From Syntrophorhabdaceae bacterium (GTDB lineage Bacteria > Desulfobacterota > Syntrophorhabdia > Syntrophorhabdales > Syntrophorhabdaceae), in NCBI GenBank assembly GCA_963666485.2, contig CAXXUO010000002.1:576001-640000 (forward strand): a DNA stretch of 64,000 nucleotides, written 5' to 3'. Shown in pieces: positions 4,010 through 63,418 of the stretch. The notes beneath the pieces were generated by a model that was not told where the DNA came from, did not search any database, and saw nothing but the letters and a program-made list of their open reading frames with translations. The position numbers and the translations under genes were made by a program. Position 1 is the first letter of the stretch; every line of letters starts with the position of its first letter.

Positions 4010-4361
4010 GTTCAACCGTTCAACCGTTCAACCGTTCAACCGTTCAACGAAAAAGACAAAAAAACGGTTCAACGGGTCAACAGAAAAGACAAAAAAATGG
4101 TTCAATGGTTCAACGCTGATACGGCGAACCTGGCTTGTCCTCAATCCGGCGAAACACCTGCCGAATGCGTATAAAGCAGCAACATAAGCCACCTGTCGTC
4201 ATTCCGGCTTGCCGGAATCCAGCGTCTTTGTCTTTTCTTCCCGAGATACAATCTTAAATTACCGGCTTAGAAACACCAAAGACACTGGATTCCGCCGCAA
4301 AAGCCGGCGGAATGACGGAAGTGGGAAGCGTTGAACCGTTGAACTGTTGAACTGTTGAACG
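4010..4361. repeat. Cassette: inward-facing octamer arrays (gttcaacc)n / (gttgaacy)n enclosing an inverted REP doublet (4197-4317)
   Basis: Arrays at 4010-4049 and 4330-4361; REPs cgtcattccggcttgccggaatccag and ctggattccgcc...ggcggaatgacg. Confidence 0.85.
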
Positions 4362-4366
4362 GTCTT

Positions 4367-5059
4367 TTATTCTTTGTTGTGCTGTTTATCGTTCTTTAGC
4401 TTCACCCGATCCCGGATCAACTCGCCAAGGACGTTGCTAAGCCCTATTCCGAGCGCAAGCGACATGGTGAGGACGATTCCGCCGAATACGATGAGGAAAC
4501 TGACCGTGACTATCGTGTTGCCGAGGCCGATATATTCGAAGACGATGCCGAAGGTGATGACGATGAGGAGGATCCTCACGCCCTTGGCAATAAAGTCGCC
4601 GTACTTGATCTTTGCATTCTCGCACGTCAGGAAGATGATCCGTCCGATGAAGTTGCTGAATATGATCCCGATAATGAGGATGACGAGGGATACGATGATG
4701 TTCGGCAGGGCCGTCGATATGCGGGACGCGTACTCCGAGAACTGGGTAATGCCCATGTAATTCAGGCCGAATGACAGGAACAGGACGATAAAGACCCAGT
4801 AAACTATCTTGCTGAGAATGAGCGACGGAGGCGAATGAATGCCGCCTTTCTCGAGAAACGTGACGATCCCGGCATCCTGGGCCCATTTATCGAACCGGAA
4901 CAGGACCAGGGCCTTGCCCAGCAGCTTCTTTATGAACCAGCTGATGATGAAGCCCAGTATCATCACGATGACCATCACGAGGATACTGAGAAAGACCTCC
5001 TGGAAATTGTCGAACAGGTCCAGGAACATGTCCTGGAAAAACTTCATGATCTCTTGCAT
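4367..5059 (-). CDS. Multi-TM membrane protein, MscS-associated TM_helix/CmpX-like
   Basis: Repeated LPNIIVSLVILIIG-type helices and a C-terminal LALGIG motif. Confidence 0.65.
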   Translation of the reverse strand: MQEIMKFFQDMFLDLFDNFQEVFLSILVMVIVMILGFIISWFIKKLLGKALVLFRFDKWAQDAGIVTFLEKGGIHSPPSLILSKIVYWVFIVLFLSFGLNYMGITQFSEYASRISTALPNIIVSLVILIIGIIFSNFIGRIIFLTCENAKIKYGDFIAKGVRILLIVITFGIVFEYIGLGNTIVTVSFLIVFGGIVLTMSLALGIGLSNVLGELIRDRVKLKNDKQHNKE

Positions 5060-5188
5060 GCGAATATATTATGCAAGGTGTCACCGCCTGTCAATGGAAA
5101 TAGGGGGTATGCAAATTTTTTTGTTGACATTCCTCATTGATTCGTTTAGGAAATTGTGTATTTTAAAAACCGAAAGGAGGGATTATTC

Positions 5189-5362
5189 ATGCCTGCAAAA
5201 GTTGACCAAGATGCCTGCACAGGATGCGGAGCCTGTTCAGAGATCTGCCCCGCCGATGCTATCAGTGTCGATGACACAGCAAAGGTCGATCCCGAACTCT
5301 GCACAGAATGCGGTGCGTGCACAGAAGAATGTCCTGTTGAAGCCATTTCGCTGGACGAGTAA
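5189..5362 (+). CDS. 2[4Fe-4S] ferredoxin
   Basis: Two CxxCxxCxxxCP motifs; SD AGGAGG before ATG 5189. Confidence 0.92.
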   Translation: MPAKVDQDACTGCGACSEICPADAISVDDTAKVDPELCTECGACTEECPVEAISLDE

Positions 5363-5386
5363 TTAATCTTCCGGATTAATTCCACA

Positions 5387-5424
5387 AAATAAAAGGATGA
5401 GGTGAAAACCCCATCCTTTTATTT
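5387..5424. terminator. Bidirectional intrinsic terminator
   Basis: Hairpin aaataaaaggatg...catccttttattt between convergent genes. Confidence 0.7.
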
Positions 5425-5445
5425 ATCCTCTTATGTAATTTCCGC

Positions 5446-7464
5446 TTATTCCATACCCTTCACGATGAGTTCTGAAAGGTCCATTGCCTTCATGGTCTCG
5501 ACCTTTTCCTTGTCCTTGATCGCGTCTTCCATCATGATAAGGCAGTACGGGCATGCCGTTACGACGGTGCCTGCCTGGATGGCGATGGCCTCATCGATCC
5601 TGGCGTGGTTGATGCGCTTGTGGTGTTCTTCCATCCACATCCCGCCGCCGCCGCCGCCGCAGCAGAAGCTCCGGTTGTGGTTCCTTTCCATCTCTTCGTA
5701 GGACCCCTTCGTTGCTTTCTTGACGAGGCTTCTCGGCTCTTCGAATATGCCGTTGGCCCTGCCGAGGTAGCACGGGTCATGGAAGGTGACCTTCCCTTCG
5801 ACGGCCGGGTTGATCTTCACTTTGCCTTCGCGCATGAGCTTGGCGAGGAATTCTCCCTGGTGGTAGACCTCGAAGTTGCCGCCGAGCTGCGCGTAATCTT
5901 TCTTGAGGGTCGTGTAGCAGTGCGGGCAGGTCGTTATGATCTTCTTGATGCCGATCTCGTTCATCATCTCTATGTTGCCCTGGGCCAGGCCGAGGTAGTT
6001 CTCTTCGTTGCCGCAGCGCCGTGACGGGTCCCCGCAGCACATTTCATCCGTACCGAGGATGCCGAAGTTGATACCGGCCTGGTTCAATATCGTGGCGAAT
6101 GCACGGGCGACCTTCCTGTTCCTGTCGTCGAGCGATGCGACGCACCCGACCCAGTACAGGTAGTCAACTTCCTGCTCTGCAGCGTTCCTGATCTCGAGGC
6201 CTTCCGTCCATCCCAGCCTTTCCTTCTTGCCCATGCCGTACGGGTTCGAGTTCTTCATGAGGTTCTTGAAGAGGAGCTTGGTGTCGGATGTCGTCTTGCT
6301 GAGCGTCAGGGTGAGGTAGCGTCTCATTTCGATGTTCTTGTCGATGGTCGGTATCGAGACCGGGCAGTTGACCTGGCAGGCAAGGCAGTTCGTGCATGAC
6401 CAGAGGGTCTGTTCCTCGATGACGGTATCGATCATGCCGTCCTCATTCTTGGCTCCGCCGTTGGCTACGCGTTCCCATTCACCTTTCAGGTCCTGGATAA
6501 ATTTTTTCGGTGAAAGGGGCTTTTCGGTGGCGTACGCAGGGCAGAGGTCCTGGCAACGGCCGCAGCGCGTACATGCATCGAAATCGAATATCTGCCGCCA
6601 GGTGAAACCGTCGATCTGGTTGATACCGAATTCCTCGGCGTTCTCAAAGTCTTCTATAGGCTGCAGCGCACCGCGGTCCGCCTCGGGGACGTCCTCGATG
6701 CCCCTGAACATCATGTTCAGTGAAGAGGTGATGAGGTGGAGCATTCTCGAGTAGACGATATAGGCGAGGAAACCGAAGGACAGGACCATGTGGATGTACC
6801 ACATCGCCATGTGTGTCGCTTTGATCGACTCAGCGGGCAGTCCGACAAAGATATATCCCGCGAGCCATCCCAGGAAGCTCCACTTTTCATACGCGTACGC
6901 CGGGTCATTCATGAACGCGGCGATCCTTGCGCCTTCGGCCAGGAAGCCGGTCACGAGGACAACGAGAATCCAGGCCAGTACGATGCCGTCATCCGGCTTC
7001 GTGTCGAGGCGGTCAGGCTTGACGACGTAGCGCCTGTAGATGGCCATCAGGATGCCGATGATCGCGGCAAGGCCGCCAACCTCGAGCAGGAATGAGAAGA
7101 TGAGGTAAAAGCCGCCCTTCAAGAATTTTACCTTGAACAGGAGGTCCGTAAAGTCAGCCTGGATCGCGACGAGGGCCGTTCCGACCGAGAGGATCAGGAA
7201 GCCCCAGAAGATGAAGAAATGCATCCAGCCGGGGAAGGCTTCACGCAGGATCGATTTATGGAAAATGCCGTTGGCGATGAAATACCCGATGCGCTCGCCA
7301 AGCCTTTTCTTGAAATCTATGGCGGCCGGTTTCCCGATTTTCCACATTGCGTACCGTTTCTTTAAACCTAGGATCAGAATGATCGCGGTAATGATCAAGA
7401 ACGCATAACTGACGTATTGCCCCGTATGTCCTACGTTCCACATTATTTCTCGTCCGACATCCAT
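5446..7464 (-). CDS. Membrane-bound heterodisulfide-reductase-like FeS oxidoreductase (NarI-like TM + 4Fe-4S + 2 CCG domains; FadF/DUF224 type)
   Basis: N-terminal TM helices with His, CTRCGRCQDLCP, CTNCLACQVNCP, MCCGDP, TCPHC, HDPCYL, FCCGGGG, ACPYC. Confidence 0.88.
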   Translation of the reverse strand: MDVGREIMWNVGHTGQYVSYAFLIITAIILILGLKKRYAMWKIGKPAAIDFKKRLGERIGYFIANGIFHKSILREAFPGWMHFFIFWGFLILSVGTALVAIQADFTDLLFKVKFLKGGFYLIFSFLLEVGGLAAIIGILMAIYRRYVVKPDRLDTKPDDGIVLAWILVVLVTGFLAEGARIAAFMNDPAYAYEKWSFLGWLAGYIFVGLPAESIKATHMAMWYIHMVLSFGFLAYIVYSRMLHLITSSLNMMFRGIEDVPEADRGALQPIEDFENAEEFGINQIDGFTWRQIFDFDACTRCGRCQDLCPAYATEKPLSPKKFIQDLKGEWERVANGGAKNEDGMIDTVIEEQTLWSCTNCLACQVNCPVSIPTIDKNIEMRRYLTLTLSKTTSDTKLLFKNLMKNSNPYGMGKKERLGWTEGLEIRNAAEQEVDYLYWVGCVASLDDRNRKVARAFATILNQAGINFGILGTDEMCCGDPSRRCGNEENYLGLAQGNIEMMNEIGIKKIITTCPHCYTTLKKDYAQLGGNFEVYHQGEFLAKLMREGKVKINPAVEGKVTFHDPCYLGRANGIFEEPRSLVKKATKGSYEEMERNHNRSFCCGGGGGGMWMEEHHKRINHARIDEAIAIQAGTVVTACPYCLIMMEDAIKDKEKVETMKAMDLSELIVKGME

Positions 7465-7528
7465 AAACTGAGCCTCCTGAGAGATTTTTGTATATTATCA
7501 TGGTAAAAGGCGTGTAAAATCAACAAAA

Positions 7529-7546
7529 ATGTGATTGATTTCACGA
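7529..7546. promoter_or_regulatory. Palindromic TF site, Rex- or CRP/FNR-like
   Basis: atGTGAttgattTCACga just upstream of the oxidoreductase promoter region. Confidence 0.4.
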
Positions 7547-7694
7547 AGGATCTGCTAAGTCAAGTCAAATCATCGGATTACAGTAAGTGAACCCTGAGAT
7601 TGCCGGATAATTTGGGCAAAAACGGGCGATTTTTCTTGACATAATTTCCTCTCAACTGGTATTTTACACCCTATAACAGCCAAAGAGGGGTTTC

Positions 7695-8615: not shown

Positions 8616-8624
8616 GTTTCTCAT

Positions 8625-9806: not shown

Positions 9807-9848
9807 TTGTTGACATGGCGGTGCTTCTATGGTGAAATACGAACCACT

Positions 9849-10313
9849 ATGACGAGAAAAAAAGAAAAAGAGATCATCCATCGGCCCGATATATTGACCC
9901 AGGCCTACGAATGGGTCCTGATGTATATCCATGAAAACACCCGTCAATGCATCTACGGTCTGGTCGCGCTGTGCATCGTCGTCGCGGCGGTTGCATCCTT
10001 TTTTGTCTATTCCAATTACCAGGACAAAAAGATCCAATACCAGCTTTTCCAGGGGATCCAGGCCATGGACGGTTACGGTCAGACAAGGTCCCAGGAGTTT
10101 CTCGACAAAGCCGAAAATATATTCCAGAAGACCGCAAGCCAGGCAAGCGGCAAGCCCCGCTACATATCGAAGCTCTACCTCGCCAACATCACCATGATCA
10201 AGGGAAAGCGTGACGACGCGCTCAAGATGTACCAGGACGTTTCAAAAAATTCATCGAATGAAGTCCTCACGCAACTCGCGAACCAGGCGATAAAAAATCT
10301 CGAAAAGAAATAA
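9849..10313 (+). CDS. Single-TM TPR protein (YfgM-like)
   Basis: N-terminal TM anchor followed by helical TPR-like repeats. Confidence 0.65.
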   Translation: MTRKKEKEIIHRPDILTQAYEWVLMYIHENTRQCIYGLVALCIVVAAVASFFVYSNYQDKKIQYQLFQGIQAMDGYGQTRSQEFLDKAENIFQKTASQASGKPRYISKLYLANITMIKGKRDDALKMYQDVSKNSSNEVLTQLANQAIKNLEKK

Positions 10314-10549
10314 AGCGGTTCCACGTTCCAGGTTCCACGTTCCACGCCATTAAGATCTCGACGTCATCCCTTCACACTCGCCGTCATCCCGGCTCCCGAG
10401 CCGGGACCCAAGGTTTGGTTTTTATTATTATTTTTGGTGTCAAAGTTTTGAAATGGGTTCAAGAAGAAAGACCTTGGATCCCGGTGTCAAGCACCGGGAT
10501 GACGGACAGTAGAAGCCTTACGCCTTACGCCTTACGCCTTACGCCGTTA
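10311..10549. repeat. Cassette: (gttccac)n array, 20-nt REP head, inverted REP doublet (10382-10504), (gccttac)x4 array
   Basis: Read directly; the spacer is near-identical to that of the doublet at 38488-38607. Confidence 0.85.
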
Positions 10550-11767
10550 GCCGTATAACGCCGCCACCGGCTCGTACTTCGTCCCTTCCATCGCCGGATA
10601 GATGCCGGCGATGACGCCGATGATCATGCTGATGAAAAGGGCGAGGGGTGTATTCATCGATACGACTATCGGGAACCCCCCGACGAGGTCGACGACGACG
10701 GTGATGATGAATCCGGCAATTATCCCGCCAACGCCGCCGACGAGGGCCACGATGACGGATTCCGAGAGAAACTGGATTATGATGTCCCGCTTCCTTGACC
10801 CGACAACCCTCCGGATGCCGATCTCCATTTTTCTTTCTGATATCGACAGGAGCATGATGGCGAATATTCCCAGTCCCCCGATGAGAAAAGAGACTGTCGA
10901 GGCGATGACCGTCAGGACCGATACCAGCCGTATGCCCTCTTCCTGCGTCCGCAGGATGTCCTCCATCGTGAATATGGTGAAATCGTCCTTCTGCTCGGGC
11001 CTCGTGTTATGGATCTTCCGTATAAACCCCCGCAATGTACCTTTCATGTTGGCCAATGAAAAACCGTCCTGGACCTGGACGTAGATCCCCTTTATGTAAT
11101 CAACGTTGGAGTAGCGCCGCATGAATGCGTTGAGCGGGACATACACCTGCAGGTCCTGGTCCTGGCCGGCGAAATCCGTCCCTTTTTCCTGCATGACGCC
11201 GGTAACTTCAGTTGGCACGCGGAATATCAATACGTTCTTTCCTATCGGGTCTTCCGACAGGAAGAAGTTCTCATAAACCTTGTAGCCGATCACCGCCTTC
11301 TTTTCAGCCTTTTCATCCTCGGCCACCGTAAAGAACCTGCCGGCGGCGAGGTCAACGTTCCTGATGTCAAAGATCTTGTTCGATACGCCGGTAACGGTCA
11401 CGTTAAGCGAATAGTCCTTGTAGCGGGCAGGATAGCTGACATCGAAATACGGGACGACCTCGGAAATGCCGGGGACCGATTCCCGTATCGCCTGGACGTC
11501 TTTCAGCTTCAGTGTTCTCGATTCGGAGAATTGCCGGGCGCTCCGTCCCGCCGTGAATACGACCCCTGCCCGTACGATGAGGAGGTTCTTCCCGAATTTA
11601 CCTATCTCCAATTCTATTTTTTTCTTCATCCCGTTGCTGATATTCCCGAATGCCACGAGGCTCATGACCGCGAACATGATACCGAGAAGGGCAAGGGTCA
11701 TCCTCGCCTTGTGGACGACGAGGTTTTGCAGGGCTATTTTCAGGTAGAACGATACCTTGTTGATCAT
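10547..11767 (-). CDS. MacB-like ABC permease
   Basis: MacB periplasmic core + FtsX; ERKMEIGIRRVVG. Confidence 0.9.
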   Translation of the reverse strand: MINKVSFYLKIALQNLVVHKARMTLALLGIMFAVMSLVAFGNISNGMKKKIELEIGKFGKNLLIVRAGVVFTAGRSARQFSESRTLKLKDVQAIRESVPGISEVVPYFDVSYPARYKDYSLNVTVTGVSNKIFDIRNVDLAAGRFFTVAEDEKAEKKAVIGYKVYENFFLSEDPIGKNVLIFRVPTEVTGVMQEKGTDFAGQDQDLQVYVPLNAFMRRYSNVDYIKGIYVQVQDGFSLANMKGTLRGFIRKIHNTRPEQKDDFTIFTMEDILRTQEEGIRLVSVLTVIASTVSFLIGGLGIFAIMLLSISERKMEIGIRRVVGSRKRDIIIQFLSESVIVALVGGVGGIIAGFIITVVVDLVGGFPIVVSMNTPLALFISMIIGVIAGIYPAMEGTKYEPVAALYG

Positions 11768-19987: not shown

Positions 19988-20956
19988 ATGTCCGGATTCA
20001 CGAAGATCATTCAGAAGGACCTTGACAAGCTCGAGTCGTCTATCGACGACCTGCTGAGCACGCGCGTCAATTACATTAAAGAGATCGTCACGTACATCAT
20101 CAAATCAGGCGGCAAAAGGGTGCGCCCCGTCCTCGTCATGCTCTGTTCCAAGCTGTGCGGGTACCGCGGAAAAAAACACATCCCCTATGCCGCGATCATA
20201 GAGTTCATTCACACCGCGACGCTTCTCCATGACGATGTCGTCGACAACGCGAAGACGCGCCGGGGCCTTTCGACGGTCAATACCGTCTGGGGGAACGAAC
20301 CGAGCGTGCTCGTGGGCGATTTCCTCTATTCGCGCTCCTTTGAGCTGATGTCCCGCGACGGGAACACCGAGATACTCAAAACGATATCCCAGGTGACCAC
20401 GGCGCTGTCCGAAGGGGAGATCCTCGAAATAGTCAAGACCGCGGACGTCGAGACGTCGGAGAAGGATTACTACGAGATCATCGGGAACAAGACGGCCGTC
20501 CTTTTCGGCGCTGCCTGCGAGATCGGCGCCATTCTTGGCAACAGGGCCCCCGTTGAAAGAAAGTCGCTGAGAAATTTCGGGTACAACCTCGGCATCGCCT
20601 TTCAGCTCATGGACGACGTGCTCGATTACACGTCGATCAACGACGTGCTGGGAAAACGCGTCGGCACAGACCTCAAGGAAGGAAAGGTCACCCTGCCCCT
20701 TATTCACGTCCTGAAAAACTCCCGTGAGAAGGACAAAGCTTACATAGAATCCGTCTTTGCAAAACAGCGGATCACGCAGGGCGATTTCGATCGCGTCAGG
20801 AAAATAATCGAGAAGAACGGCGGCATCGCATACACAATGGATGCAACGAGGAAGCACCTCGACAAAGCGAAGAAGCACCTGGACATATTCCCGGCATCAC
20901 AATATAAGACCGCGCTGCTGGAACTGGCGGACTATATGCTGAACCGGGAGATGTAG
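19988..20956 (+). CDS. ispB: Polyprenyl (octaprenyl) diphosphate synthase
   Basis: GGKRVRP, LLHDDVVD, FQLMDDVLD, DLKEGKVTLP. Confidence 0.85.
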   Translation: MSGFTKIIQKDLDKLESSIDDLLSTRVNYIKEIVTYIIKSGGKRVRPVLVMLCSKLCGYRGKKHIPYAAIIEFIHTATLLHDDVVDNAKTRRGLSTVNTVWGNEPSVLVGDFLYSRSFELMSRDGNTEILKTISQVTTALSEGEILEIVKTADVETSEKDYYEIIGNKTAVLFGAACEIGAILGNRAPVERKSLRNFGYNLGIAFQLMDDVLDYTSINDVLGKRVGTDLKEGKVTLPLIHVLKNSREKDKAYIESVFAKQRITQGDFDRVRKIIEKNGGIAYTMDATRKHLDKAKKHLDIFPASQYKTALLELADYMLNREM

Positions 20957-20965
20957 GCAAAAGAT

Positions 20966-21067
20966 GGTTCAAGGTTCAAGGTTCAAAGACAAAAAAAGAA
21001 CCGGGATAATGCAAAACGCTTTCGCAGTTTAGGGGATCTTTTAACCTTGAACCTTGAACCTTGAACC
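20966..21067. repeat. Cassette: (ggttcaa)x3 ... (ttgaacc)x3-4, inward-facing, short spacer only
   Basis: Read directly between the convergent ispB and glgC stop codons. Confidence 0.9.
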
Positions 21068-21072
21068 GTTTT

Positions 21073-22302
21073 TTACAGTATGGCTCCCTTGGGGATGACA
21101 ACAAGCCCCTCTTCCGTCACGTGGAACCGTTTCCGGTCTTTCTCGAGGTCATAGCCTATCTTCATCCCCTCGGGAACGCGAACGCCTTTGTCGATGATCG
21201 CCCTGCGCACTTTTGCGCGCATCCCGATGATGACGTTATGAAAAAGTATCGATTCGCTTACTTCGGCATAACTGTTGACGCGAACGCCCGGCGACAGGAC
21301 GGAGGCGTGTACCTTCCCGCCGCTGATGATAACGCCGCCGCAGATCACCGAATCGAGCGCCTTGCCGGCCCTGCCTGATCTTTCATCGGCAAAAACGGTC
21401 TTCGCGGGAGGATACTGCCCCTGGTACGTCCGGATCGGCCAGTCGGGGTCGTAGAGGTTGAACTCCGGGGTTACGGCCGCCAGGTCCATGTTGGCCTTCC
21501 AGTATGCATCGATGGTCCCTATATCTCTCCAGTATTTCTCTCCCTTCCCTTTGCCTGAACCGAATTTGTATATGTAAACGTTGTGGTTGGGATACATATA
21601 GGGGATAACGTCGTGCGCAAAGTCATGGAGGGAATCTTCACGGGCGGCATCTTTCGTGAGCATGTCGATGAGGACGTCGCGTCTGAAGACGTAGACGCCC
21701 ATAGAAACACAGGCGCGTCCGGGCTTGTCCGGCAGAGGCCGCGGGTCTTCGGGCTTTTCCTCGAAACCGGTGACCCGGCAATCTGCAGCCGCCTCGATGA
21801 CCCCGAAACGCGGGGCGTCCTCAAGGTCCACCTCGACTGAAGATATCGTCACGTCCGCCTTCTTCGCCTGGTGATACCGCACGAAGTGGCTGTAATCCAT
21901 TTTGTAGATGTGGTCGGCAGACAGGATGACCACGTTGTCCGCATCGACCTGCTTCAAGTGGTACAGGTTCTGGTAAACAGCATCGGCCGTCCCCCTGTAC
22001 CATTCTTCGCTCACCCTCATCTGCGGCGGCAGGTTCGAGACATATTCCCCGAGTTCCGGGTTCAATATGCTCCACGCGTCCCGGATATGCTCGATGAGAG
22101 AGTACGACTTGTATTGCGGCAGGACGAATATTTTTCTGATGCCCGAGTTAACGCAATTGCTTAACGTGAAATCGATGATGCGGTATTTTCCACCGAAGAC
22201 GACCGCCGGTTTCGCCCTGTCCCGTGTAAGCGGGTGAAGCCGCTCCCCGGCACCGCCGGCCAGGACGAACGCGACTGCCCTGTGCATGACCCTCGTTCTC
22301 AT
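21073..22302 (-). CDS. glgC: Glucose-1-phosphate adenylyltransferase
   Basis: LAGGAGERLHPLT, RAKPAVVFGGKYRIIDF, WYRGTADAV, FEEKP, YWRDIGT. Confidence 0.95.
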   Translation of the reverse strand: MRTRVMHRAVAFVLAGGAGERLHPLTRDRAKPAVVFGGKYRIIDFTLSNCVNSGIRKIFVLPQYKSYSLIEHIRDAWSILNPELGEYVSNLPPQMRVSEEWYRGTADAVYQNLYHLKQVDADNVVILSADHIYKMDYSHFVRYHQAKKADVTISSVEVDLEDAPRFGVIEAAADCRVTGFEEKPEDPRPLPDKPGRACVSMGVYVFRRDVLIDMLTKDAAREDSLHDFAHDVIPYMYPNHNVYIYKFGSGKGKGEKYWRDIGTIDAYWKANMDLAAVTPEFNLYDPDWPIRTYQGQYPPAKTVFADERSGRAGKALDSVICGGVIISGGKVHASVLSPGVRVNSYAEVSESILFHNVIIGMRAKVRRAIIDKGVRVPEGMKIGYDLEKDRKRFHVTEEGLVVIPKGAIL

Positions 22303-23687: not shown

Positions 23688-25430
<1,743 letters not shown>

Positions 25431-25463
25431 AGAAGAAATCAGTTGACATCGAACACAGTTGCT

Positions 25464-25625
25464 TGGATCCCGGTGTCAAGCACCGGGATGACGGACTGTA
25501 CGGGAAGAGGTTGGCTTCTACAGTGCTAGTTACCGCCTTACGCCGTTCGCCCTTCGCTGTTCGCCGTTCGCCGTTCGCCGTTAGCCGTTAGCCGTACGCC
25601 GTTAGCCGTTAGCCGTTAGCCGTTC
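25464..25625. repeat. REP hairpin followed by a 13-unit degenerate heptamer array (gccgtta/gccgttc)
   Basis: REP at 25464-25492; array at 25535-25625 overlaps the KamA stop codon. Confidence 0.88.
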
Positions 25626-29951: not shown

Positions 29952-30302
29952 CGCCGTCATTCCCAACCACTCCCCGTCATTCCCAACCACTCGCCGTCAT
30001 TCCCAACCACTCGCCGTCATTCCCAACCACTCGCCGTCATTCCCAACCTCCCGCCCGTCGGCATCCCCAACCTCCCGCCCGTCATTCCCAACCACTCGCC
30101 GTCATTCCCAACCACTCGCCGTCATTCCGGCGAAGGCCGGAATCCAGTGTCTTTAATTTCTTCCTTTCGTTATGACAATAGATTTGATATCTTCATCTAG
30201 TTCAGTGCCTGAAGAATTTTGTCTGGATCTTTCACCTGGCCTGTTAGAGGGCAATAAAGACACTGGATTCCGGCACCCAGAGGGTACCCGGCCGGAATGA
30301 CG
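29952..30302. repeat. Eight ~20-nt tandem REP heads (cgccgtcattcccaaccact) followed by an inverted REP doublet (30120-30302)
   Basis: Read directly; the ninth unit is a full REP, cgtcattccggcgaaggccggaatccagtgtcttt. Confidence 0.9.
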
Positions 30303-31875: not shown

Positions 31876-33285
31876 ATGTCATCCCATCCGGCGCCGCTCG
31901 TTTTCCGCTGGATCGTCATAACGGTTGCATTCGGCGCATTCATGTCGAAGCTTGACAGCTACATTGTCAACATCTCGCTTCCCACGATCGCCGAACGCTT
32001 TCACGTGACATCCGCGGAGGTTTCCTGGGTTGTCCTCGTCTACCTCCTGGTATCGACGAGCACACTCTTGCTTTTCGGCAAACTGGGAGACCGGTTCGGG
32101 CTGCGGCGCGTCTTCTTTTTCGGCTACCTGCTCTTCACCATAGGTTCGTTCCTGTGCGGCGCGGCCATGTCCCTCGGGATGCTGGTCGCGGCACGCTTCG
32201 TACAGGGCCTCGGGTGCGCGATGATACTGGCCATCGCTTTCGCCGTGATACCGCGGTTCCTCCCGCCCGAAAGGACCGGCTGGGCCTTCGGCATCGCGTC
32301 GACCGGGGCCGCCCTGGGGATAGCGATCGGTGCTCCCGCGGGCGGCATCATTACAGGCTTCCTGTCCTGGCGCTGGGTGTTTCTTGTCAACGTTCCCTTC
32401 GGGCTGTTCGCCATGTACGCGGTCAACAGGTACATACCGGATGAGGACACGGCCCGGCTCAAAAGGCCCGGGAAGGCGAGTTTCGACATCTTAGGCGCCG
32501 GCTTAAGCTTTGGCGGTCTCGCATTTTTCATTTATGCCCTGAGCGCGGGCTGGGATTTTGGATGGGTCTCCTTCCGGATACTCGGGTCGTTTGCGGCATC
32601 CTTCGTGCTCCTGGCCCTGTTCTTCGTGCGGGAGGTGAAATGTTCGGAACCTCTTCTCGAACTCAGCCTGTTCCGGAGCTTCCACTTCACTGCCGCGGTC
32701 ACATCTACCCTCTTTGCATACATGCTCCTCGCGGGCAACTCATTCCTCCTGCCTTTTTATCTCGAGACAGGCAAGAAACTGCCCACGCAGACGGTCGGCT
32801 TCGTCATTATGATCTACTCGGTGATCTACATGGCGATAGGCCCCTACGCCGGCCGTATATCCGACAAGATCCGCCCGAGCGCGTTGTGTGCGTTTGCCAT
32901 GCTCTCCGCCGCGGCATGTTCCTTCGTCTTCGCATTCACCCTCGATATGCCGGGCCTCGTACCCGTTGTCGTCTTTCTCATATGGATAGCGTTTTCTTTC
33001 GGCTTTTTCATCTCCCCCAACAACAACCAGGTCATGCGCCTCGCACCCGACCACAAGCAGGGCAGCGCCTCCGGCGTATTCAACACCATCAACAGCCTCG
33101 GGCTCGCCCTCGGCGTCTGTCTCTTCGAATCCCTCATGTCCCGCTCCTCAACGGACGCAGGGCTGCGCACTTTTCAAACCGCGACCATGGCAGGGTACCG
33201 CAATGCCTATATTTTCGGCGGCATCGTGTGCATCATATCTCTCTTCTTTTCGTTGTTGATTGGGTGGAATAATAAAAACAAATAG
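31876..33285 (+). CDS. MFS efflux transporter, DHA2 (EmrB/QacA) family
   Basis: LDSYIVNISLP, GKLGDRFG, WRWVFLVNVP; about 14 TM. Confidence 0.9.
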   Translation: MSSHPAPLVFRWIVITVAFGAFMSKLDSYIVNISLPTIAERFHVTSAEVSWVVLVYLLVSTSTLLLFGKLGDRFGLRRVFFFGYLLFTIGSFLCGAAMSLGMLVAARFVQGLGCAMILAIAFAVIPRFLPPERTGWAFGIASTGAALGIAIGAPAGGIITGFLSWRWVFLVNVPFGLFAMYAVNRYIPDEDTARLKRPGKASFDILGAGLSFGGLAFFIYALSAGWDFGWVSFRILGSFAASFVLLALFFVREVKCSEPLLELSLFRSFHFTAAVTSTLFAYMLLAGNSFLLPFYLETGKKLPTQTVGFVIMIYSVIYMAIGPYAGRISDKIRPSALCAFAMLSAAACSFVFAFTLDMPGLVPVVVFLIWIAFSFGFFISPNNNQVMRLAPDHKQGSASGVFNTINSLGLALGVCLFESLMSRSSTDAGLRTFQTATMAGYRNAYIFGGIVCIISLFFSLLIGWNNKNK

Positions 33286-33292
33286 AAAAAAT

Positions 33293-33459
33293 GGTTCAAG
33301 GTTCAAGGTTCAAGGTTCAAGGTTCAAGGTTCAAGGAAAAAAAATCAAAACCTTGGGTCCCGGGTCAAGCCCGGGACGATGATTTAAAACATTTTCAATT
33401 AAGTGAATAGAAAAAGGGTAATCTGTTCGCTTTGAACTTTGAACCTTGAACTTTGAACC
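33293..33459. repeat. Cassette: (ggttcaa)x6 ... single REP (33351-33380) ... (ttgaacy)x4
   Basis: Read directly between the convergent MFS and QueF-like genes. Confidence 0.9.
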
Positions 33460-33476
33460 GGCCCGCTGCGCGGGCC

Positions 33477-38422: not shown

Positions 38423-38446
38423 CGGCATAACAGGAATCTACCACTG

Positions 38447-38607
38447 CCGTCATCCCTTCACGCTCGCCGTCATCCCTTCACGCTCGCCGTCATCCCGGGC
38501 TTGACCCGGGACCCAAGGTTTGGTTTTTATTATTCTTTTTGATATCAAAGTTTTGAAATGGTTCAAGAAGAAAAACCATGGGTCCCGGCTCGGAGGCCGG
38601 GATGACG
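38447..38607. repeat. Two 20-nt REP heads plus an inverted REP doublet (38488-38607)
   Basis: (gccgtcatcccttcacgctc)x2 then REP-spacer-REP; spacer shared with 10382-10504. Confidence 0.88.
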
Positions 38608-38682
38608 GACCTGGATGATTACGACACAGTCCGGGAAACCGGGTTCCCGTGTTTTTGTCCTTGTTTTTGCACGCCCGTGCTG

Positions 38683-39687: not shown

Positions 39688-39821
39688 GGTTCCACGTTCC
39701 ACGGTTCCACGTTCCACGATAAAAGATAAAGCAAAAGCGAAACCTTAACTCCACCGGCAATGTAATTGACGGGTATGCATGATTTTTTTTGCGTGGAACG
39801 TGGAACGTGGAACGTGGAACG
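39688..39821. repeat. Cassette: (gttccac)x4 ... (gtggaac)x4, inward-facing
   Basis: Read directly between divergent genes. Confidence 0.9.
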
Positions 39822-39840
39822 TCAAGCCGCTGCCGGCGGC

Positions 39841-39870
39841 TTGACATTGTTATGAGCATATGCTTATAAT
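39841..39870 (+). promoter_or_regulatory. sigma70 promoter with overlapping palindromic operator
   Basis: TTGACA-N18-TATAAT; TATGAGCAT/ATGCTTATA palindrome at 39851-39868; ATG 5 nt after the -10 box. Confidence 0.75.
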
Positions 39871-42158: not shown

Positions 42159-43070
42159 ATGGGCATGACAGGCCAAAAGCGGCTGACATTCACCCTCATC
42201 GTGACGCTCGTCATCATGGCGGGAGAGTTGATCGGCGGCTATTTAAGCAACAGCCTTGCCCTCTTAAGCGACGCCGGCCACATGGTCACCGACGCGCTCG
42301 CCATCATGCTCGGCCTCGTGGCGGCGGTCATAAGCAAGAGGCCGTCCGACAGGCGTGCCACGTTCGGTTATGACCGTGTCGGGCTCCTCGCAGCGCTCAT
42401 CAACGGATTAAGCCTCCTCATCATCGCGGTCGTCATATTCTACGAGTCATACGAGAGGTTCCGGACCCCGCCGACCCTGGATATCGCGGTCATGATAGCG
42501 ATCGCCGGCGTGGGCCTCGCCGGGAACATAGCCATGGTGTTCATCGTGGGCCATAGCCATGATGACCTGACGCTGAAAAGTGTCTGGCTTCATGTCCTTG
42601 GAGATACCCTGTCGTCGGTGGGCGTCATTATTTCCGGCCTCATCATCTATTATACCGGCTGGACATATGCCGACCCCATCGCCAGCGTTCTCATCGGCGG
42701 CGTTATCATCTGGGGAGGAGTGAGGCTCGTACGGGACACAATGTCCATATTCCTCAACTTGACCCCGCGGGGTTTCGACGTAGAAAAGATTGCCGCCGAC
42801 ATCGCGAAGATGCATGACGTCATAGACGTGCACGACGTTCATCTGTGGCCCGTCGCGCATAACCAGGTCGCTTTTTCGGCCCACATCCTCGTTGATGACA
42901 AGACACTGAAAGAGGCCGAAGAAACAAAGAAGAACATCGAGGCTATGCTCAAAAAAGCGGGCGTCCATCACAGCACGCTGCAGATAGAATGCAGCTGCAT
43001 CGACTGTGACAACAACCTCTTCTGTGCGATCCGCCCGGACTCCGCCGACCACGACACCCACCACCATTAG
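42159..43070 (+). CDS. Cation diffusion facilitator (CzcD/ZitB-like)
   Basis: SLALLSDAGHMVTD, LHVLGD, HDVHLW, HSTLQIE, His-rich end. Confidence 0.92.
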   Translation: MGMTGQKRLTFTLIVTLVIMAGELIGGYLSNSLALLSDAGHMVTDALAIMLGLVAAVISKRPSDRRATFGYDRVGLLAALINGLSLLIIAVVIFYESYERFRTPPTLDIAVMIAIAGVGLAGNIAMVFIVGHSHDDLTLKSVWLHVLGDTLSSVGVIISGLIIYYTGWTYADPIASVLIGGVIIWGGVRLVRDTMSIFLNLTPRGFDVEKIAADIAKMHDVIDVHDVHLWPVAHNQVAFSAHILVDDKTLKEAEETKKNIEAMLKKAGVHHSTLQIECSCIDCDNNLFCAIRPDSADHDTHHH

Positions 43071-43144
43071 CCCCATTCAACCTTAGCCGTTAGCGGTTAA
43101 TGGCACAATAAACGACTGCCATGTCGCAGGCCCCTGTCAGATAT

Positions 43145-43357
43145 CGTCATCCCGGTGCTTGACACCGGGATCCAAGGTTTGTCACTTTCTTGTACTGTCT
43201 GCGTTTCATATTGCGGAACCATGGAGCCTCGCAGATCTAAAACAAAGACACTGGATCCCGGTGTCAAGCACCGGGATGACGGCGGTGGTAGTCATTTGTT
43301 TGCATATGACCGTTCGCCTTTAGCCTTTCGCCTTTAGCCTTTCGCCGTTCGCCGTTT
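43145..43357. repeat. Inverted REP doublet (43145-43281) plus heptamer array (gcctttm/gccgttc)x7
   Basis: Read directly. Confidence 0.88.
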
Positions 43358-48693: not shown

Positions 48694-48768
48694 CGTCGTC
48701 CCGGCGAACCGGGGCGCTTTTCTAAAAGGCCCTCATTCCGGTGCTTGACACCGGGATCCAGCGTCTTT
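48694..48768. repeat. Two degenerate REP hairpins
   Basis: cgtcgtcccggcgaaccgggg and tcattccggtgcttgacaccgggatccagcgtcttt. Confidence 0.7.
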
Positions 48769-50000: not shown

Positions 50001-50027
50001 CAATCGAAATCCGGAAACTCTGAAAAG

Positions 50028-50326
50028 ACTCTCTCTCGCCCGTTCGTCGCTTCGCTCCTCTCTCGAGCTCGCGGAGAACGCGGAGAACGGCGGAGGCCGC
50101 GGGAGCCCGGAGCCGACCAGGCTCCCGCGGCATCTTCGATCCTGCCCTTCAGGCAGGATGGACCGCTTGGACTATTAATTACCTTGTATTGTTTTTCTTC
50201 TTTTCCTCGGCGAAGCCGACGAAAGTGCCGGCTGGTCGTGGTCGGCTCCGCGACCAGCCGGCAAAGTCTTTCCCCTTCGCAGTTCTCTGTGTTCTCTGTG
50301 AGCTCGAGCGAAGCGGGCGAGAGAGT
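50028..50326. repeat. ~300-bp non-coding element with imperfect terminal inverted repeats containing 9-mer repeats (MITE-like)
   Basis: actctctctcgcccg..cttcgct..ctcgagctcgcggagaacgcggagaac versus gttctctgtgttctctgtgagctcgagcgaagcgggcgagagagt. Confidence 0.7.
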
Positions 50327-50330
50327 GTAT

Positions 50331-56674: not shown

Positions 56675-56727
56675 ACATTCCCTCCCCTTGGCTTTGTATT
56701 ATTGTGCCCTTACCCTGTCGCTAAAAC

Positions 56728-57074: not shown

Positions 57075-57112
57075 ATCCGGTATTCTGGTTGCAATTGAAG
57101 TGCCAGCGATGA

Positions 57113-59997: not shown

Positions 59998-60018
59998 GTT
60001 TGATTGTAGCAAAAAAAG

Positions 60019-60580
60019 GGTTCAAGGTTCAATGTTCAAGGTTCAAGGGTAAAAAAAGCGGGGGGATGTTGGTCGTTGCGGATTTTATTCCGCTTTGAAA
60101 AGTAATATTAGGAAAAAGGAGGTCACGTGTGGCGAATGATATGTTTGAAGATTTGAAGATGTGGCAGGAGGCGAGGCAATTGACGGGAAAGATTTATGAG
60201 CTTACCAAAAAGCCCCCATTGTCAAAGGATTTTGAAATGATAGGTCAGTTGAGGCGAGGACTGATTTCAATAACCTCAAATATTGCAGAGGGATTCGAAC
60301 GCGGAGGCAACCGGGAGTTTATCTATTTTTTATCAATAGCAAAGGGATCTTCAGGTGAAGTTCGATCGCAGCTGTACCTGGCATTGGATCAAGGATACAT
60401 AGAAAAACAGGAATGCGAGCAAATAGTAAATAGCCTTAAAGTTTTATCATCAATGATAGGCAATTTCCTAAAATACTTAAAAGACTCCCATTATAAGGGC
60501 TCTAAATTCAAAAAGCCCGCCGCCCCCCGGTAAATACCGCGAATTGTTTTACCTTGAACTTTGAACCTTGAACCTTGAAC
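60019..60580. mobile_element. Heptamer-bounded cassette carrying a four-helix-bundle gene
   Basis: (ggttcaa)x4 at 60019-46 and (ttgaacy)x4 at 60552-80 flank an AT-rich ORF; mobility is inferred. Confidence 0.6.
60129..60533 (+). CDS. Four helix bundle protein (23S rRNA IVS protein / Avd-like family)
   Basis: FEDLKMWQ, QLRR...SITSNIAEGFER, FLSIAKGSSGEVRSQL; SD AGGAGG. Confidence 0.93.
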   Translation: MANDMFEDLKMWQEARQLTGKIYELTKKPPLSKDFEMIGQLRRGLISITSNIAEGFERGGNREFIYFLSIAKGSSGEVRSQLYLALDQGYIEKQECEQIVNSLKVLSSMIGNFLKYLKDSHYKGSKFKKPAAPR

Positions 60581-60617
60581 GGGGCATTATCGAAGTATCG
60601 ATAATGCCCCGGTTTTT
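60580..60617 (+). terminator. Intrinsic terminator
   Basis: cggggcattatcga-agta-tcgataatgccccg followed by ttttt. Confidence 0.75.
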
Positions 60618-60620
60618 CGC

Positions 60621-60842
60621 CTATTTCCTCGTCCCCTGGTTCGGGTTGACCGGTGTCGGTTTCGGAACCTCCGGTACCTTCACATCTTCTATTTTCTTCC
60701 CGGCCTGGCTCTCGAGCTGCTGCAAGGCCTGTCCTTTCTCTTTCTTCGGCGCATTATCCGCCGCAAAAACCTCGCTTCCTGCAAACACGAGCCCAAAAAT
60801 AACCAGCGCCGCCGCAAACATCCTCACCATTTTCCTTTTCAT
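60621..60842 (-). CDS. Small secreted protein
   Basis: Signal peptide, Lys/Pro-rich mature part; SD GGAGG. Confidence 0.65.
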   Translation of the reverse strand: MKRKMVRMFAAALVIFGLVFAGSEVFAADNAPKKEKGQALQQLESQAGKKIEDVKVPEVPKPTPVNPNQGTRK

Positions 60843-60944
60843 CTCTCTCCTCCGTATGTTTTTTTGTTCATACACTATATGACACAGGCAGACAGAAAAA
60901 TGTTCCAAAAAAAGGGTGGACCATTTCAGTCCGCCCCTTATTTG

Positions 60945-60978
60945 TTAACCTTGAACTTTGATCCTTGAACCTTGAACC
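60945..60978. repeat. Heptamer array (ttgaacy)x4 just after the cmk-like stop
   Basis: Read directly. Confidence 0.85.
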
Positions 60979-60988
60979 GTCTTTTCGC

Positions 60989-61729: not shown

Positions 61730-61870
61730 ATCAGGACCTCCTCCTGACTTTACACGCATCAGCTGAAAACAACCCGCCTATTTATGAAACCTGCCCTTTA
61801 TTAATTGTGTATAGCCGAGGGTTGGCGGTTTGTCAACTGCCGGGGGGACCAGCGCGGGGCAATTTCTTCT

Positions 61871-62293
61871 TTAAAGAAGTTTTATAAAGTCGGCAGGGGT
61901 GAGTATCCTGGTCCCTTTATAATGTCTGACATCGAGCAGCGCCCTGTCGCCCGTAACCAGATGCCCGGCACCGGCGCTCAGGGCACAGGAGATGAACATG
62001 TCATCATCAGGATCAGCGCATACCCCGCGTACCTTTTCACTTATTATCACAACCTCGAAATAAGGCAGGACCTCATCTTCGATGAGAAAAGTAATTTCAT
62101 CCCGGGTCAGCGAAAATTTAGGGTACCATAGAGTGTCAACGAGTTCCTGAAAGGTTTCGCGGGACAGGACAGGGTTTATCCGGGCATCCCTCAAGGAGGC
62201 CCGGATCTCCGACATCGTACCGCCGAAGATAAGGGCCGATATCAGGACATTTGTATCGAGGACGACCTTTATTTCTTTCTCCTTCTCGACCAG
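61871..62293 (-). CDS. PIN-domain toxin (VapC-like); non-canonical start
   Basis: VVLDTNVLISA, DPDDDMFISCA, LVTGD..LL; only CTG (62293) or ATA (62272) are near the domain start. Confidence 0.85.
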   Translation of the reverse strand: MVEKEKEIKVVLDTNVLISALIFGGTMSEIRASLRDARINPVLSRETFQELVDTLWYPKFSLTRDEITFLIEDEVLPYFEVVIISEKVRGVCADPDDDMFISCALSAGAGHLVTGDRALLDVRHYKGTRILTPADFIKLL

Positions 62294-62508
62294 CGGACGG
62301 CATCCGCGACATCGTTTCGATCTATTCCCAGTCTTTCCATCTTGCTCCGTATTCCCTCGACAGATAACGAAACCGGAGATATTCTGACCGGTGTAAGGAT
62401 TATCAGATTGTCCTTTATAACGATGTCGAAATAATCGGTGTCGGGAAACCTGTCCGCGATCTCTTTGGGCAAGGTAACCTGGTTCTTCGATGTTTTCTTT
62501 GCAAGCAT
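62269..62508 (-). CDS. AbrB/MazE-type antitoxin
   Basis: MLAKKTSKNQVTLPK; SD AGGAGG; upstream of the PIN gene. Confidence 0.88.
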   Translation of the reverse strand: MLAKKTSKNQVTLPKEIADRFPDTDYFDIVIKDNLIILTPVRISPVSLSVEGIRSKMERLGIDRNDVADAVRWSRRRKK

Positions 62509-62516
62509 TCCTTACC

Positions 62517-62531
62517 TCCTTACTGTAAGGA
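62517..62531. promoter_or_regulatory. Putative TA operator palindrome
   Basis: tccttac-t-gtaagga plus a third tccttac half-site at the RBS. Confidence 0.55.
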
Positions 62532-62687
62532 TATCTTAGTAACATCCAAAGTTCAACCAATAATTCCGCTCAACGCAAACGTTTCAACAATCATCTGCCC
62601 CCTGGGTTTGATCCTATATTACTTTTTAGAACAAGAAAACGTGATTGAAACTTGAAACGATTTTCAGGTTACTCTACAATCAATTTT

Positions 62688-63065
62688 ATGAGAATATCAT
62701 TCCCGGCAATATTGGCTCTGGCAGCGCTCGCCCTGACCGCCTGCACGGTGACGAAAAACATTGCCATCGAGATGCCCCCCACCGCTGCCGTGTCCGTCTA
62801 TGACGGGAAGATCGTCGGCAAGCCCTTCGTCAACAAGGTCGGTCAGGAGAGCCCGAAAATGATCGACCTGTATTTCGAGACGGGTGGGAAAACATATTTC
62901 ATCAAGTTCATCGACAGCAACGTATCCCGCAATGAAATGTCCCAATACATCAATACGCGCCTGAAGGTGGAGGGCAGGCTCGGTGACGGCCTGTGGGACA
63001 CGAATGACCCCAACCATCAGAGCCGGGTCGGGGAGTATATCGTTATCGAAAAGATAAAAAAGTAA
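62688..63065 (+). CDS. Lipoprotein of unknown function
   Basis: Lipobox LTAC; TTGAAA-N17-TACAAT upstream. Confidence 0.75.
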   Translation: MRISFPAILALAALALTACTVTKNIAIEMPPTAAVSVYDGKIVGKPFVNKVGQESPKMIDLYFETGGKTYFIKFIDSNVSRNEMSQYINTRLKVEGRLGDGLWDTNDPNHQSRVGEYIVIEKIKK

Positions 63066-63418
63066 AGCGGTTCCACGTTCCAGGTTCCACGTTCCATGAG
63101 AAAAGCGAAGATTTGGCACAACGTCTGTACTCAAACTGAGCACGATTGTTCTCAATTTGAGTACAGACATTTAGTGATGCCGTCATCCCGGTGCTTGACA
63201 CCGGAATCCAGGGTTTTGCATCTCTTTTTGACGTTGAACGGTTGTCAGAGGAAGGGGACGTCCTTAAGAAAGTAAGTAACTCGGTTAGGGGTAAAGAATG
63301 TAAGAATGGTCCATTGAGTCATTGTGGGGAGTTTCTTACTTTCTTAAGGACGTCCCCTCAGTCTTTTACGTGATCTAAGGTTTTTTAGCTTTGAACCTTG
63401 AACCTTGAACCTTGAACC
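63063..63418. repeat. Composite cassette: (gttccac)n, hairpin 63123-63168, REP 63181-63215, 30-bp IR 63253-63358, (ttgaacc)x4
   Basis: Read directly between convergent stop codons. Confidence 0.85.

Follow-up and report, generated by a model that had tools for sequence, protein, structure and literature searches.

Short tandem arrays of seven-nucleotide units recur in the non-coding DNA of a Syntrophorhabdaceae bacterium, in the 64,000-nucleotide stretch of contig CAXXUO010000002.1 (positions 576,001 to 640,000) that was analysed as a whole and is called the window. There is high confidence that these arrays are the arms of heptamer-repeat hairpins. The explanation favoured here, which we hold to be probable by a small measure only, is that the arms tend to slip, stay similar through copying and behave, in this genome, like bidirectional terminators at gene ends. 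The observation as a whole is real: Tandem Repeats Finder (TRF) and a separate lag scan recovered period-7 or period-8 arrays at every coordinate named in the original prediction, together with four further ones (436-466, 43313-43356, 60019-60048 and 60551-60580). A typical array has about four units and spans 30 nt. In what follows, "forward" is the strand that reads GTTCMA-type units, and gene calls combine open reading frames (ORFs) with Pfam matches, by which 88.1% of the window is genic.

The number and the placement of the arrays are both far from chance. Strong runs in the window amount to 14 at period 7, two at period 8 and one at period 6, with none at periods 4, 5 or 9-11, and the mean number of period-7 runs was 0.0 in 100 first-order Markov simulations of the window as well as in simulations of its intergenic DNA alone. 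Outside gene calls lie 698 of the 708 array bases, a figure matched by none of 20000 random placements. Moreover, 14 of 18 arrays are found within 18 nt of an intergenic edge; random placement gave a mean of 4.6, and 14 was reached in 0 of 100000 trials.

The arrays occur in inverted pairs, in which the left arm is of GTTCMA type on the plus strand and the right arm on the minus strand. Five of the seven pairs are complementary, with duplexes of 28-39 pairs and energies of -44 to -58 kcal/mol, compared with -12 to -18 kcal/mol for shuffled arms. Folding of whole regions gave z-scores of -5 to -10 in six of the seven regions folded; in the seventh (33280-33420) z was -2.1, and this fold excluded the right arm at 33430-33458. 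In the cassette 4004-4366, both arms of which use an unusual 8-nt period, the right arm pairs with 4001-4052 over 39 bp (-53.6 kcal/mol), and the arm 60551-60580 pairs with 60008-60056 over 31 bp (-46.6 kcal/mol). Either strand could fold into a stem of 28-39 bp, and in each case (GGTTCAA)n or (GTTCCAC)n would form the 5' arm.

The original prediction also contained a polarity rule, according to which the arrays face into the intergenic space, mostly start just past stop codons and, at 12 stops named, read always on the sense strand of the gene. The 12 stops on which it rested are all present. Ten of them have an array 4-18 nt later, which reads GGTTCAA, GTTCCAC or GTTCAACC on the sense strand, and at the two others (10547 and 25616) the TAA is located inside an array of GGCGTAA/CGGCTAA type. 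GTTCMA arrays point away from the nearer gene edge in 14 of 15 cases (binomial p about 0.001). There are also exceptions. The array 60551-60580 reads TTGAACC 17 nt past the plus-strand stop at 60533, and it obeys the rule only if the PF05635 gene that ends there is counted as cargo between the arms 60019 and 60551; past the plus-strand stop at 43070 the weak run 43084-43100 likewise shows the opposite polarity. Solid arrays adjoin a stop in 12 of about 19 cases, and about seven of the 19 are found away from stops, that is, at a start (60019), upstream of promoters (436-466 and 39792-39822) or in mid-region (43313).

Facing into the intergenic space is largely a matter of hairpin-module geometry. 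There is, on the other hand, one asymmetry that is real: the arms stand in the order 5'-GGTTCAA...TTGAACC-3' and never the other way round, with six forward-then-reverse GTTCMA pairs in the window and none in the reverse order. A hairpin with its arms exchanged would be equally stable by nearest-neighbour energies, which means that folding energy cannot account for the fixed identity of the 5' arm. Stop codons were considered as the cause of the polarity and rejected, as no rule common to the motifs can be read from the sequences: GGTTCAA is stop-free on its own strand and has TGA in all frames of the other strand, GGCGTAA and CGGCTAA show the opposite pattern, and GTTCCAC is stop-free on both strands.

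The surroundings of the arrays in the window are similar to those of terminators. The 12-nt flanks, read on the GTTCMA strand, contain 50-53% A against a background of 22%; AAAA is present in nine of the 14 outer flanks and in 11 of the 14 inner ones, and TTTT in none. The module is thus ordered as an A-tract outside the 5' arm, the stem and a T-tract outside the 3' arm, and the region 20950-21085, for instance, folds to a 28-bp stem followed by GUUUUUU, the reverse strand doing likewise. Arrays are found in 7 of 9 convergent, 2 of 7 divergent and 3 of 15 co-directional gaps (convergent against the 5 of 22 others, p = 0.012). The array-adjacent stops (n = 13) are TAA in nine cases and TAG in four, and never TGA, which ends 20 of the 50 other genes (p = 0.006). 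The stop codon often belongs to the A-tract of the module or to the T-tract of the other strand, as in GGTCTTTTA at 4361-4369. At 33459, 39823, 467 and 60581 a separate GC hairpin takes the place of the T-tract; on the outer side of their arrays, such hairpins span 467-483, 33459-33475 and 60581-60610. A 3'-UTR (untranslated region) signal, as originally proposed, is made plausible in the source genome by the A-tract/stem/T-tract order, the convergent gaps and the choice of stops, although the arrays are not exclusive to 3' ends.

Similar arrays exist in other genomes. Species-representative genomes were scanned for three GTTCMAS units and at least 121 stretches matched, 80 of them with 2.5-kb flanks; the counts given for other genomes refer to the matches listed, among which the source genome does not appear and two loci, L029 and L030, are the same place. 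According to the record titles, the matches listed come from Thermodesulfobacteriota, Acidobacteriota, Bacteroidota, Nitrospirota, Methylomirabilota, Planctomycetota, Verrucomicrobiota, Binatia, Betaproteobacteria, Chloroflexota and Patescibacteria, with isolates and one complete chromosome included. Opposite arrays at most 250 nt apart are of the GGTTCAA-then-TTGAACC type in 26 cases and of the reverse type in none, and the one neighbour pair in reverse-forward order is separated by 712 nt and by a gene that stands between two separate hairpins. When the loci are oriented by the seed, 25 of the 68 listed with enough flank have an ORF of 100 aa or more on the same strand that ends no more than 30 nt 5' of the array, whereas the mirror configuration is seen in 7 of 68 and 3.4 would be expected at random; for GGTTCAA alone the stop-side and mirror counts are 16 and 1. 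The hairpins usually fill the entire spacer between genes and, within one genome, they have the motif in common while their loops and flanks are unrelated.

In a Syntrophaceae metagenome-assembled genome (MAG; locus L015), GCCTTTA and GGTTCAA arrays (1810-1833 and 2501-2545) stand around one gene, as in the window, and both face away from the enclosed gene in obedience to the polarity rule, a likeness that may be a clue to the lineage of the window. In the Prevotellaceae contig L029 (2501-3712), GTTCCAC arrays, with GC hairpins beside them, lie together with ACTTAAC arrays on the flanks of a radical-SAM gene, and the polarity of the arrays relative to the stop of this gene is opposite to that of the window. 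Further period-7 arrays, more than 300 nt from the seed, were found in the flanks of 120 listed loci, and 22 of these 24 have unrelated motifs; the trait common to these genomes is therefore the 7-nt period and not one sequence. Non-GTTCMA motifs of the listed loci gave only one inverted pair and about ten oriented single arrays, too small a set to yield a composition rule for the sense strand of all heptamer motifs. Long arrays were also seen (L100 189-397 and L024 2501-2583): one in a contig of a Galbibacter isolate runs to 30 units, and a Betaproteobacteria MAG has one of 12.

The mechanism that we propose would start with growth of the arms by replication slippage in a 7-nt register until coding sequence is reached; the arms would abut stops and starts because growth halts there. 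Copying from one arm or site to another would keep them similar, and the A/T-tract flanks of the arms would often absorb a TAA or TAG stop. Between convergent genes the module, transcribed from either side, may then act as a compact bidirectional intrinsic terminator or, alternatively, as a stem that protects 3' ends, as far as can be judged from sequence. In relation to copying, the original prediction reported a 34-mer that is identical at 10311-10344 and 63063-63096, and this is correct, the identity extending 0 nt further on either side. This 34-mer, the 8-nt period shared by two arms, the complementarity of the arms and the locus L090 (163-362), in which unit variants follow mirrored gradients along the two arms, are signs of copying from arm to arm and from site to site. 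It had been concluded earlier that the arrays are copied or templated rather than products of slippage. Copying is in agreement with these data, but growth by slippage remains compatible with the purity of the period and with a copy number that varies.

Several results weigh against this explanation. Arms of different types can bound one cassette, as had been predicted, and the two pairs concerned are poorly complementary (two of seven): 10318 with 10515 gives -13.1 kcal/mol, the same as shuffled arms, and 63070 with 63391 are complementary only in part. Both arm orders are thermodynamically identical, and a hairpin model leaves the 26:0 bias of the listed loci unaccounted for. When the G-U versus A-C asymmetry was compared in top- and bottom-strand RNA folds of 27 pairs, as a guide to the strand selected as RNA, the sense strand was better in all five "top only" cases, and the top strand was also better in three of the four "bottom only" cases. 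The stems (28-39 bp) and the loops (56 to about 500 nt) are far beyond those of textbook intrinsic terminators, and a consensus terminator scan, which admits loops of 3-8 nt only and is blind to these stems, lists none of them. The inward-facing pair 39688-39822, described earlier as lying between divergent genes, does lie between divergent promoter-like sites, namely a minus-strand site at 39660-39631 and the promoter 39841-39870, and it may not be part of any mRNA; the array 436-466 precedes a gene start (LptF).

The listed loci add to these objections. Of their assignable hairpins 10 of 14 lie between co-directional genes, three between divergent genes and one between convergent genes; they often adjoin the next start and have no U-tract, and the array flanks in other phyla are only 25-28% A. 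The hairpins of other phyla resemble intercistronic stems of the repetitive extragenic palindromic (REP) kind more than terminators. The sister motifs are inconsistent as well, with stop-side and mirror counts of 3 and 2 for GTTCAAC and of 0 and 2 for GTTCCAC. That the arrays terminate or stabilise transcripts is a conclusion which, being read from the letters alone, we draw with moderate confidence.

Between the arms there are REP-type hairpins, other palindromes and a PF05635 gene. In the proposed mechanism they would be found there because the loop is the only dispensable DNA, and not because the arrays attract them. The REP core CCGGTG-N5-CACCGG has seven copies in the window against 0.08 expected, and variants were also seen by eye. 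It belongs to a separate family, similar to REP doublets forming hairpins (REPINs), of the form CGTCATYCCGG-hairpin-CCGGRATCCARG, often arranged as inverted doublets with a conserved T-rich spacer. Its sites are 352-425, 4187-4318, 10356-10508, 25461-25495, 30120-30150, 33355-33385, 38440-38612, 43140-43285, 48726-48766 and 63176-63216, and the doublets 10398-10456 and 38503-38561 are 93% alike. Two 20-nt tandem arrays of CGCCGTCATYCC..., the 5' half of the REP unit, are located at 29952-30128 (8.6 copies) and 38446-38496 (2.5 copies), and both end in a full REP hairpin.

With REPs called by eye, seven gaps contain an array and a REP, five arrays only, three a REP only and 16 neither (p = 0.02). 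That insertions are tolerated in loops and in 3' gaps alike accounts for this overlap better than landing pads do. The window REP has 0 copies in the 121 array loci listed from other genomes, and a link between arrays and REP was rejected, the two being independent elements. The IS110 family is known for its habit of targeting REPs. An IS110-type element at about 24285-25460, whose transposase gene carries DEDD_Tnp_IS110 and Transposase_20, seems to split a REP flank (CCTTG/GATCC), with ...AAAACCTTG on the left and CTTGGATCCCGG... on the right, a position that would fit this habit. Immediately beside the element there is CCTTG on the left and CTTGGATCC on the right, and no array is present at the site. 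The suggestion that the arrays serve as landing pads for REP and insertion-sequence cargo is not supported: the IS110-type element appears to be in a REP flank, arrays and REPs occur separately, and the REP was found in 0 of the 121 listed loci.

The PF05635 gene ("23S rRNA intervening sequence protein"; 60129-60533, plus strand, E = 2.6e-33) lies exactly between complementary GGTTCAA/TTGAACC arms (31 pairs), in a unit (60019-60580) within a run of minus-strand genes. This unit is like a 23S rRNA intervening sequence in that a PF05635 ORF is enclosed by long-stem inverted repeats, the stem of such sequences being an RNase III target. It differs in its location between protein genes, and Rfam shows no rRNA in the window; at gathering thresholds, the whole window gave tRNA-Phe only. 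When phmmer was run against all ORFs of 60 aa or longer in the 121 listed loci, no PF05635 homologue appeared at E <=0.001; a general association between arrays and PF05635 was rejected on the strength of this search, which distant members could escape, one array pair enclosing such a gene.

Heptamer repeats are a known kind, to which the arrays add a new motif family. They correspond to the heptanucleotide type of intergenic long simple sequence repeats (LSSR) and short tandemly repeated repetitive (STRR) sequences, with head-to-tail 7-nt units in at least three copies and a non-coding bias, apart from one 8-nt cassette. STRR sequences are tandem non-coding heptamers, with few families per genome, and complementary arrays of them can extend an RNA helix. 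Mazel and colleagues reportedly described these heptamers in cyanobacteria in 1990, and Vioque is said to have found them, in 1997, within the P12 helix of RNase P RNA. The window arrays are alike in being tandem non-coding heptamers and differ in motifs and lineage; a polarity rule relative to gene ends has not been seen described for STRR.

Other known systems are similar in part. A REP unit is an imperfect palindrome, 20-40 nt long, that is particular to one species and to its REP-associated tyrosine transposase (RAYT). REPs, REPINs, bacterial interspersed mosaic elements (BIMEs) and paired DNA-uptake sequences are intergenic hairpin doublets of fixed order and mosaic structure, enriched at 3' ends, and they often double as terminators or mRNA stabilisers. 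The window arrays are likewise intergenic inverted doublets that fold to hairpins, but their arms are tandem 7-mers, their loops are unrelated, their motif crosses phyla, and the window has a separate REP family; no Y1/RAYT domain was found among the 80 ORFs scanned in the window. With Rho-independent bidirectional terminators the modules have in common the A-tract, the stem and the U-tract right after convergent stops, whereas those terminators have a stem of about 5-14 bp and a small loop, and the modules have tandem-unit stems of 28-39 bp and loops of tens to hundreds of nucleotides. With miniature inverted-repeat transposable elements (MITEs) and foldback transposons they have in common terminal inverted repeats (complementary in five of seven pairs), and they differ by the lack of a target-site duplication and of conserved internal sequence: no flanking direct repeats were seen by eye, and the loops are unrelated within and between genomes.

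The closest published relatives are the heptamers of Xanthomonas. Rehm et al. (2015; PMC4692102) report 186 and 183 arrays of GGGAATC in two Xanthomonas genomes, with a mode of four units, 89-93% of them intergenic, 70 and 75 convergent inverted pairs, and mean distances of 28 nt from the 5' ORF and 160 nt from the 3' ORF. They tied the four-unit mode to G-quadruplexes and did not find a function. The window arrays are like these and the Nostoc GGGGAYT repeats in their 7-nt unit, about four copies and convergent pairs on opposite strands, and like the Xanthomonas arrays in being mainly intergenic and adjoining the 5' ORF on its coding strand. On the other hand, they have A/T-tract flanks, are mostly located at convergent gene ends and belong to a motif, GTTCMA, found in many phyla and not in one genus. 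The motif in the window is also without G-tracts, so the G-quadruplex explanation of a four-unit preference cannot apply to GGTTCAA.

A second relative is the TAACTGA heptamer of marine Beggiatoaceae, Cyanobacteria and Bacteroidetes (MacGregor 2015, PMC4679880). According to that article, these repeats are found just upstream of start codons, 169 sets being direct and one indirect, and a role in translation was thought of; CspB, which binds heptamer repeats with one protein per heptamer, was proposed as their reader. Both kinds of repeat are intergenic heptamers of distant phyla with a fixed position at gene boundaries and no evident transfer mechanism, whereas the window shows mainly inverted pairs at 3' ends. 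As quoted in these two papers (PMC4692102 and PMC4679880), Mrazek (2007) found that, in most prokaryotic genomes, no long simple repeats are as abundant as heptamers, and explained them by polymerase slippage. A survey of 2025 is said, in a passage that gives no detail, to report 6-9-bp repeats as enriched in prokaryotic phyla. A literature string search with six 14-nt forms of the present arrays gave three unrelated hits and no relevant match.

Three other explanations have to be weighed. The arrays could be a mutational by-product, in which a bias towards 7-nt slippage generates them, template switching gives the inverted arms, and purifying selection confines them to non-coding DNA where they have no function. 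Such a neutral origin, which we regard as unlikely, would agree with the abundance and slippage explanation of heptamers attributed to Mrazek (2007) by the papers that cite it, with the unrelated motifs of 22 of the 24 further period-7 arrays in the flanks of the listed loci, and with loops and flanks that are unrelated between hairpins of one genome. Neutral arrays should, however, be spread over intergenic DNA, and 14 of 18 hug an edge; they should use both arm orders, and the counts are 26:0 in the listed loci and 6:0 in the window. The A/T-tract flanks and the absence of TGA stops suggest integration with gene ends, and an identical irregular 34-mer at two loci is not the outcome of independent slippage. 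A fixed arm order and a 34-mer identical at two sites would instead be expected of non-autonomous foldback or REPIN-like elements, whose arrays would be oriented terminal inverted repeats for a transposase or HUH enzyme and whose interior would be cargo. The PF05635 gene placed exactly between a complementary pair and a motif common to many phyla among the matches listed also speak for such elements. We nevertheless judge them improbable. Target-site duplications are not visible and no internal or flanking sequence is conserved, even within one genome; the only candidate enzyme in the window is the IS110-type gene, which is in a REP flank; in the 121 listed loci phmmer (E <=0.001) found no PF05635 homologue among ORFs of 60 aa or longer; the arms of one cassette can be unrelated; and many other heptamer motifs are present in the same genomes.

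The third possibility is that a protein whose footprint is 7 nt, such as one with a cold-shock domain, recognises the 5' arm in single-stranded form, as RNA or DNA. Its binding would compete with the hairpin and tune termination or read-through; as binding would tune termination, the recognised strand would have to be transcribed first. It is the sole model considered that explains both the 7-nt period and the strict identity of the 5' arm on both strands, and MacGregor (2015, PMC4679880) provides a precedent in CspB, reported as one protein per heptamer and proposed to read TAACTGA. The modal arm of about four units equals that of Xanthomonas, although the window motif is without G-tracts. 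We none the less give this model very little credence: the motifs in these genomes are too diverse to favour a single sequence-specific reader, transcription of the pair 39688-39822 is uncertain, and the polarity of the sister motifs is inconsistent in the listed loci, outside the source genome. Slippage-prone hairpin arms, kept alike by copying and terminator-like in this genome, thus remain the explanation that we prefer.

The individual arrays are described here in their order along the window. A short ATGGGTG array of 2.7 units (289-307, plus strand; TRF and sequence) forms the left side of the cassette 289-466, the right side of which is a GGTTCCA/GTTCCAC array on the minus strand (436-466; TGGAACC on the plus strand), 58 nt ahead of the LptF start and followed by a GC hairpin. 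In the next cassette the 5' arm (4010-4048, plus) is (GTTCAACC)x4.9 with period 8, 6 nt past the TAA at 4001-4003; degenerate GGTTCAAC units with AAAAGACAAAAAAA spacers between them form a 33-nt super-repeat at 4063-4113 (plus; TRF, family D9), and the period-8 3' arm (4329-4360, minus; 4325-4360 in the repeat scans) is 6 nt from the minus-strand stop at 4367. The region 3286-4003 may be a frameshifted gene: an alpha/beta-hydrolase (Peptidase_S9) match was obtained only for the C-terminal ORF 3443-4003, and the overlapping ORF 3286-3660, in another frame, had no match. A GTTCCAC array (10318-10346, plus) begins 4 nt past the stop at 10313 and includes part of the duplicated 34-mer; the GGCGTAA/CGGCTAA-type array opposite (10515-10556, minus; 10515-10545 in the repeat scans), which has no complementarity to it, contains the minus-strand stop 10547-10549. 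The 5' arm (GGTTCAA)x3 at 20966-20986 (plus) is 9 nt past the stop at 20956, and its 3' arm (21043-21067, minus), TTGAACC on the plus strand in 3.6 copies followed by GTTTTTT, is 5 nt from the minus-strand stop at 21073.

A 12-unit CGGCTAA/CGGCGAA array (25541-25625, minus) overlaps the minus-strand stop at 25616. The 5' arm (GGTTCAA)x6.3 at 33293-33336 (plus), 7 nt past the stop at 33285, is accompanied by a 3' arm of GTTCAAA/G on the minus strand (33430-33458); this arm is 18 nt from the minus-strand stop 33477 and is followed by a GC hairpin. The pair between promoter-like sites consists of a GTTCCAC 5' arm (39688-39718, plus) and a 3' arm that reads GTGGAAC on the plus strand (39792-39822, minus), directly followed by a hairpin and the promoter 39841-39870, a perfect TTGACA-18-TATAAT (12/12 consensus). 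The weak run past the plus-strand stop at 43070 comprises three TTAGCSG units (43084-43100, minus; family D5), and a GCCTTTM array, of TAAAGGC type on the minus strand (43313-43356), is in mid-region, 242 nt from the gene on its left. At the PF05635 cassette, the 5' arm GGTTCAA x4.3 (60019-60048, plus) forms the left end, 6 nt from the start of a minus-strand kinase gene, and the 3' arm (60551-60580, minus), which follows the PF05635 stop, is 40 nt from the minus-strand stop at 60621. A minus-strand GGTTCAA array (60947-60978), followed on the plus strand by GTCTTTTCG, is 10 nt past the minus-strand stop 60989. Finally, a GTTCCAC array (63070-63096, plus) is found 4 nt past the lipoprotein gene stop at 63065, and a minus-strand GGTTCAA array (63391-63420), followed on the plus strand by TTTTTTT, is 8 nt from the TAA 63429-63431.

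This last stop (minus strand) is real, and the NifU-like frame above it contains an in-frame TGA at 63558-63560, just ahead of CGINALSLW, which could be a selenocysteine codon, a pseudogene mark or a sequencing error; the gene ending at 63429 needs read-through of this TGA and is uncertain. It is the downstream one of two tandem NifU-like minus-strand ORFs (63429-63728 and 63774-63998), which are covered by a DNA repeat 74% alike at 333-nt spacing. Beside the arrays, AAAGAC was found at six distinct sites (seven tallied, one being counted for two arrays) against 0.7 expected; as all of them are in three cassettes, it was rejected as a general part of the module. The convergent gap 50001-50330 is without heptamers and has the same architecture as the heptamer modules, with inverted period-9 arrays, (GCGGAGAAC)n on the left and (GTTCTCTGT)n on the right, spanning 50036-50326, and outer inverted ends CTCTCTCGCCCG...GAGCTC / GAGCTC...CGGGCGAGAGAG.

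The window is a clean case of heptamer arrays used as hairpin arms at gene ends. The unit length, the count of about four copies and the polarity recur here with a motif that does not form G-quadruplexes, which removes the explanation given for Xanthomonas. As the 26:0 order of the listed loci does not come from hairpin stability, it points to a strand-specific reader or to a directional copying process. Heptamer-array hairpins might even form a cis-acting class common to several phyla, in which a conserved 7-nt reader of (GGUUCAA)n sets termination against read-through. This is a long shot in our estimation; if true, a conserved single-strand reader would explain both the bacterial preference for 7 nt and the never-reversed arm order. 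For annotation, the modules would mark gene ends, and likely terminators, in lineages whose terminators are poorly defined.

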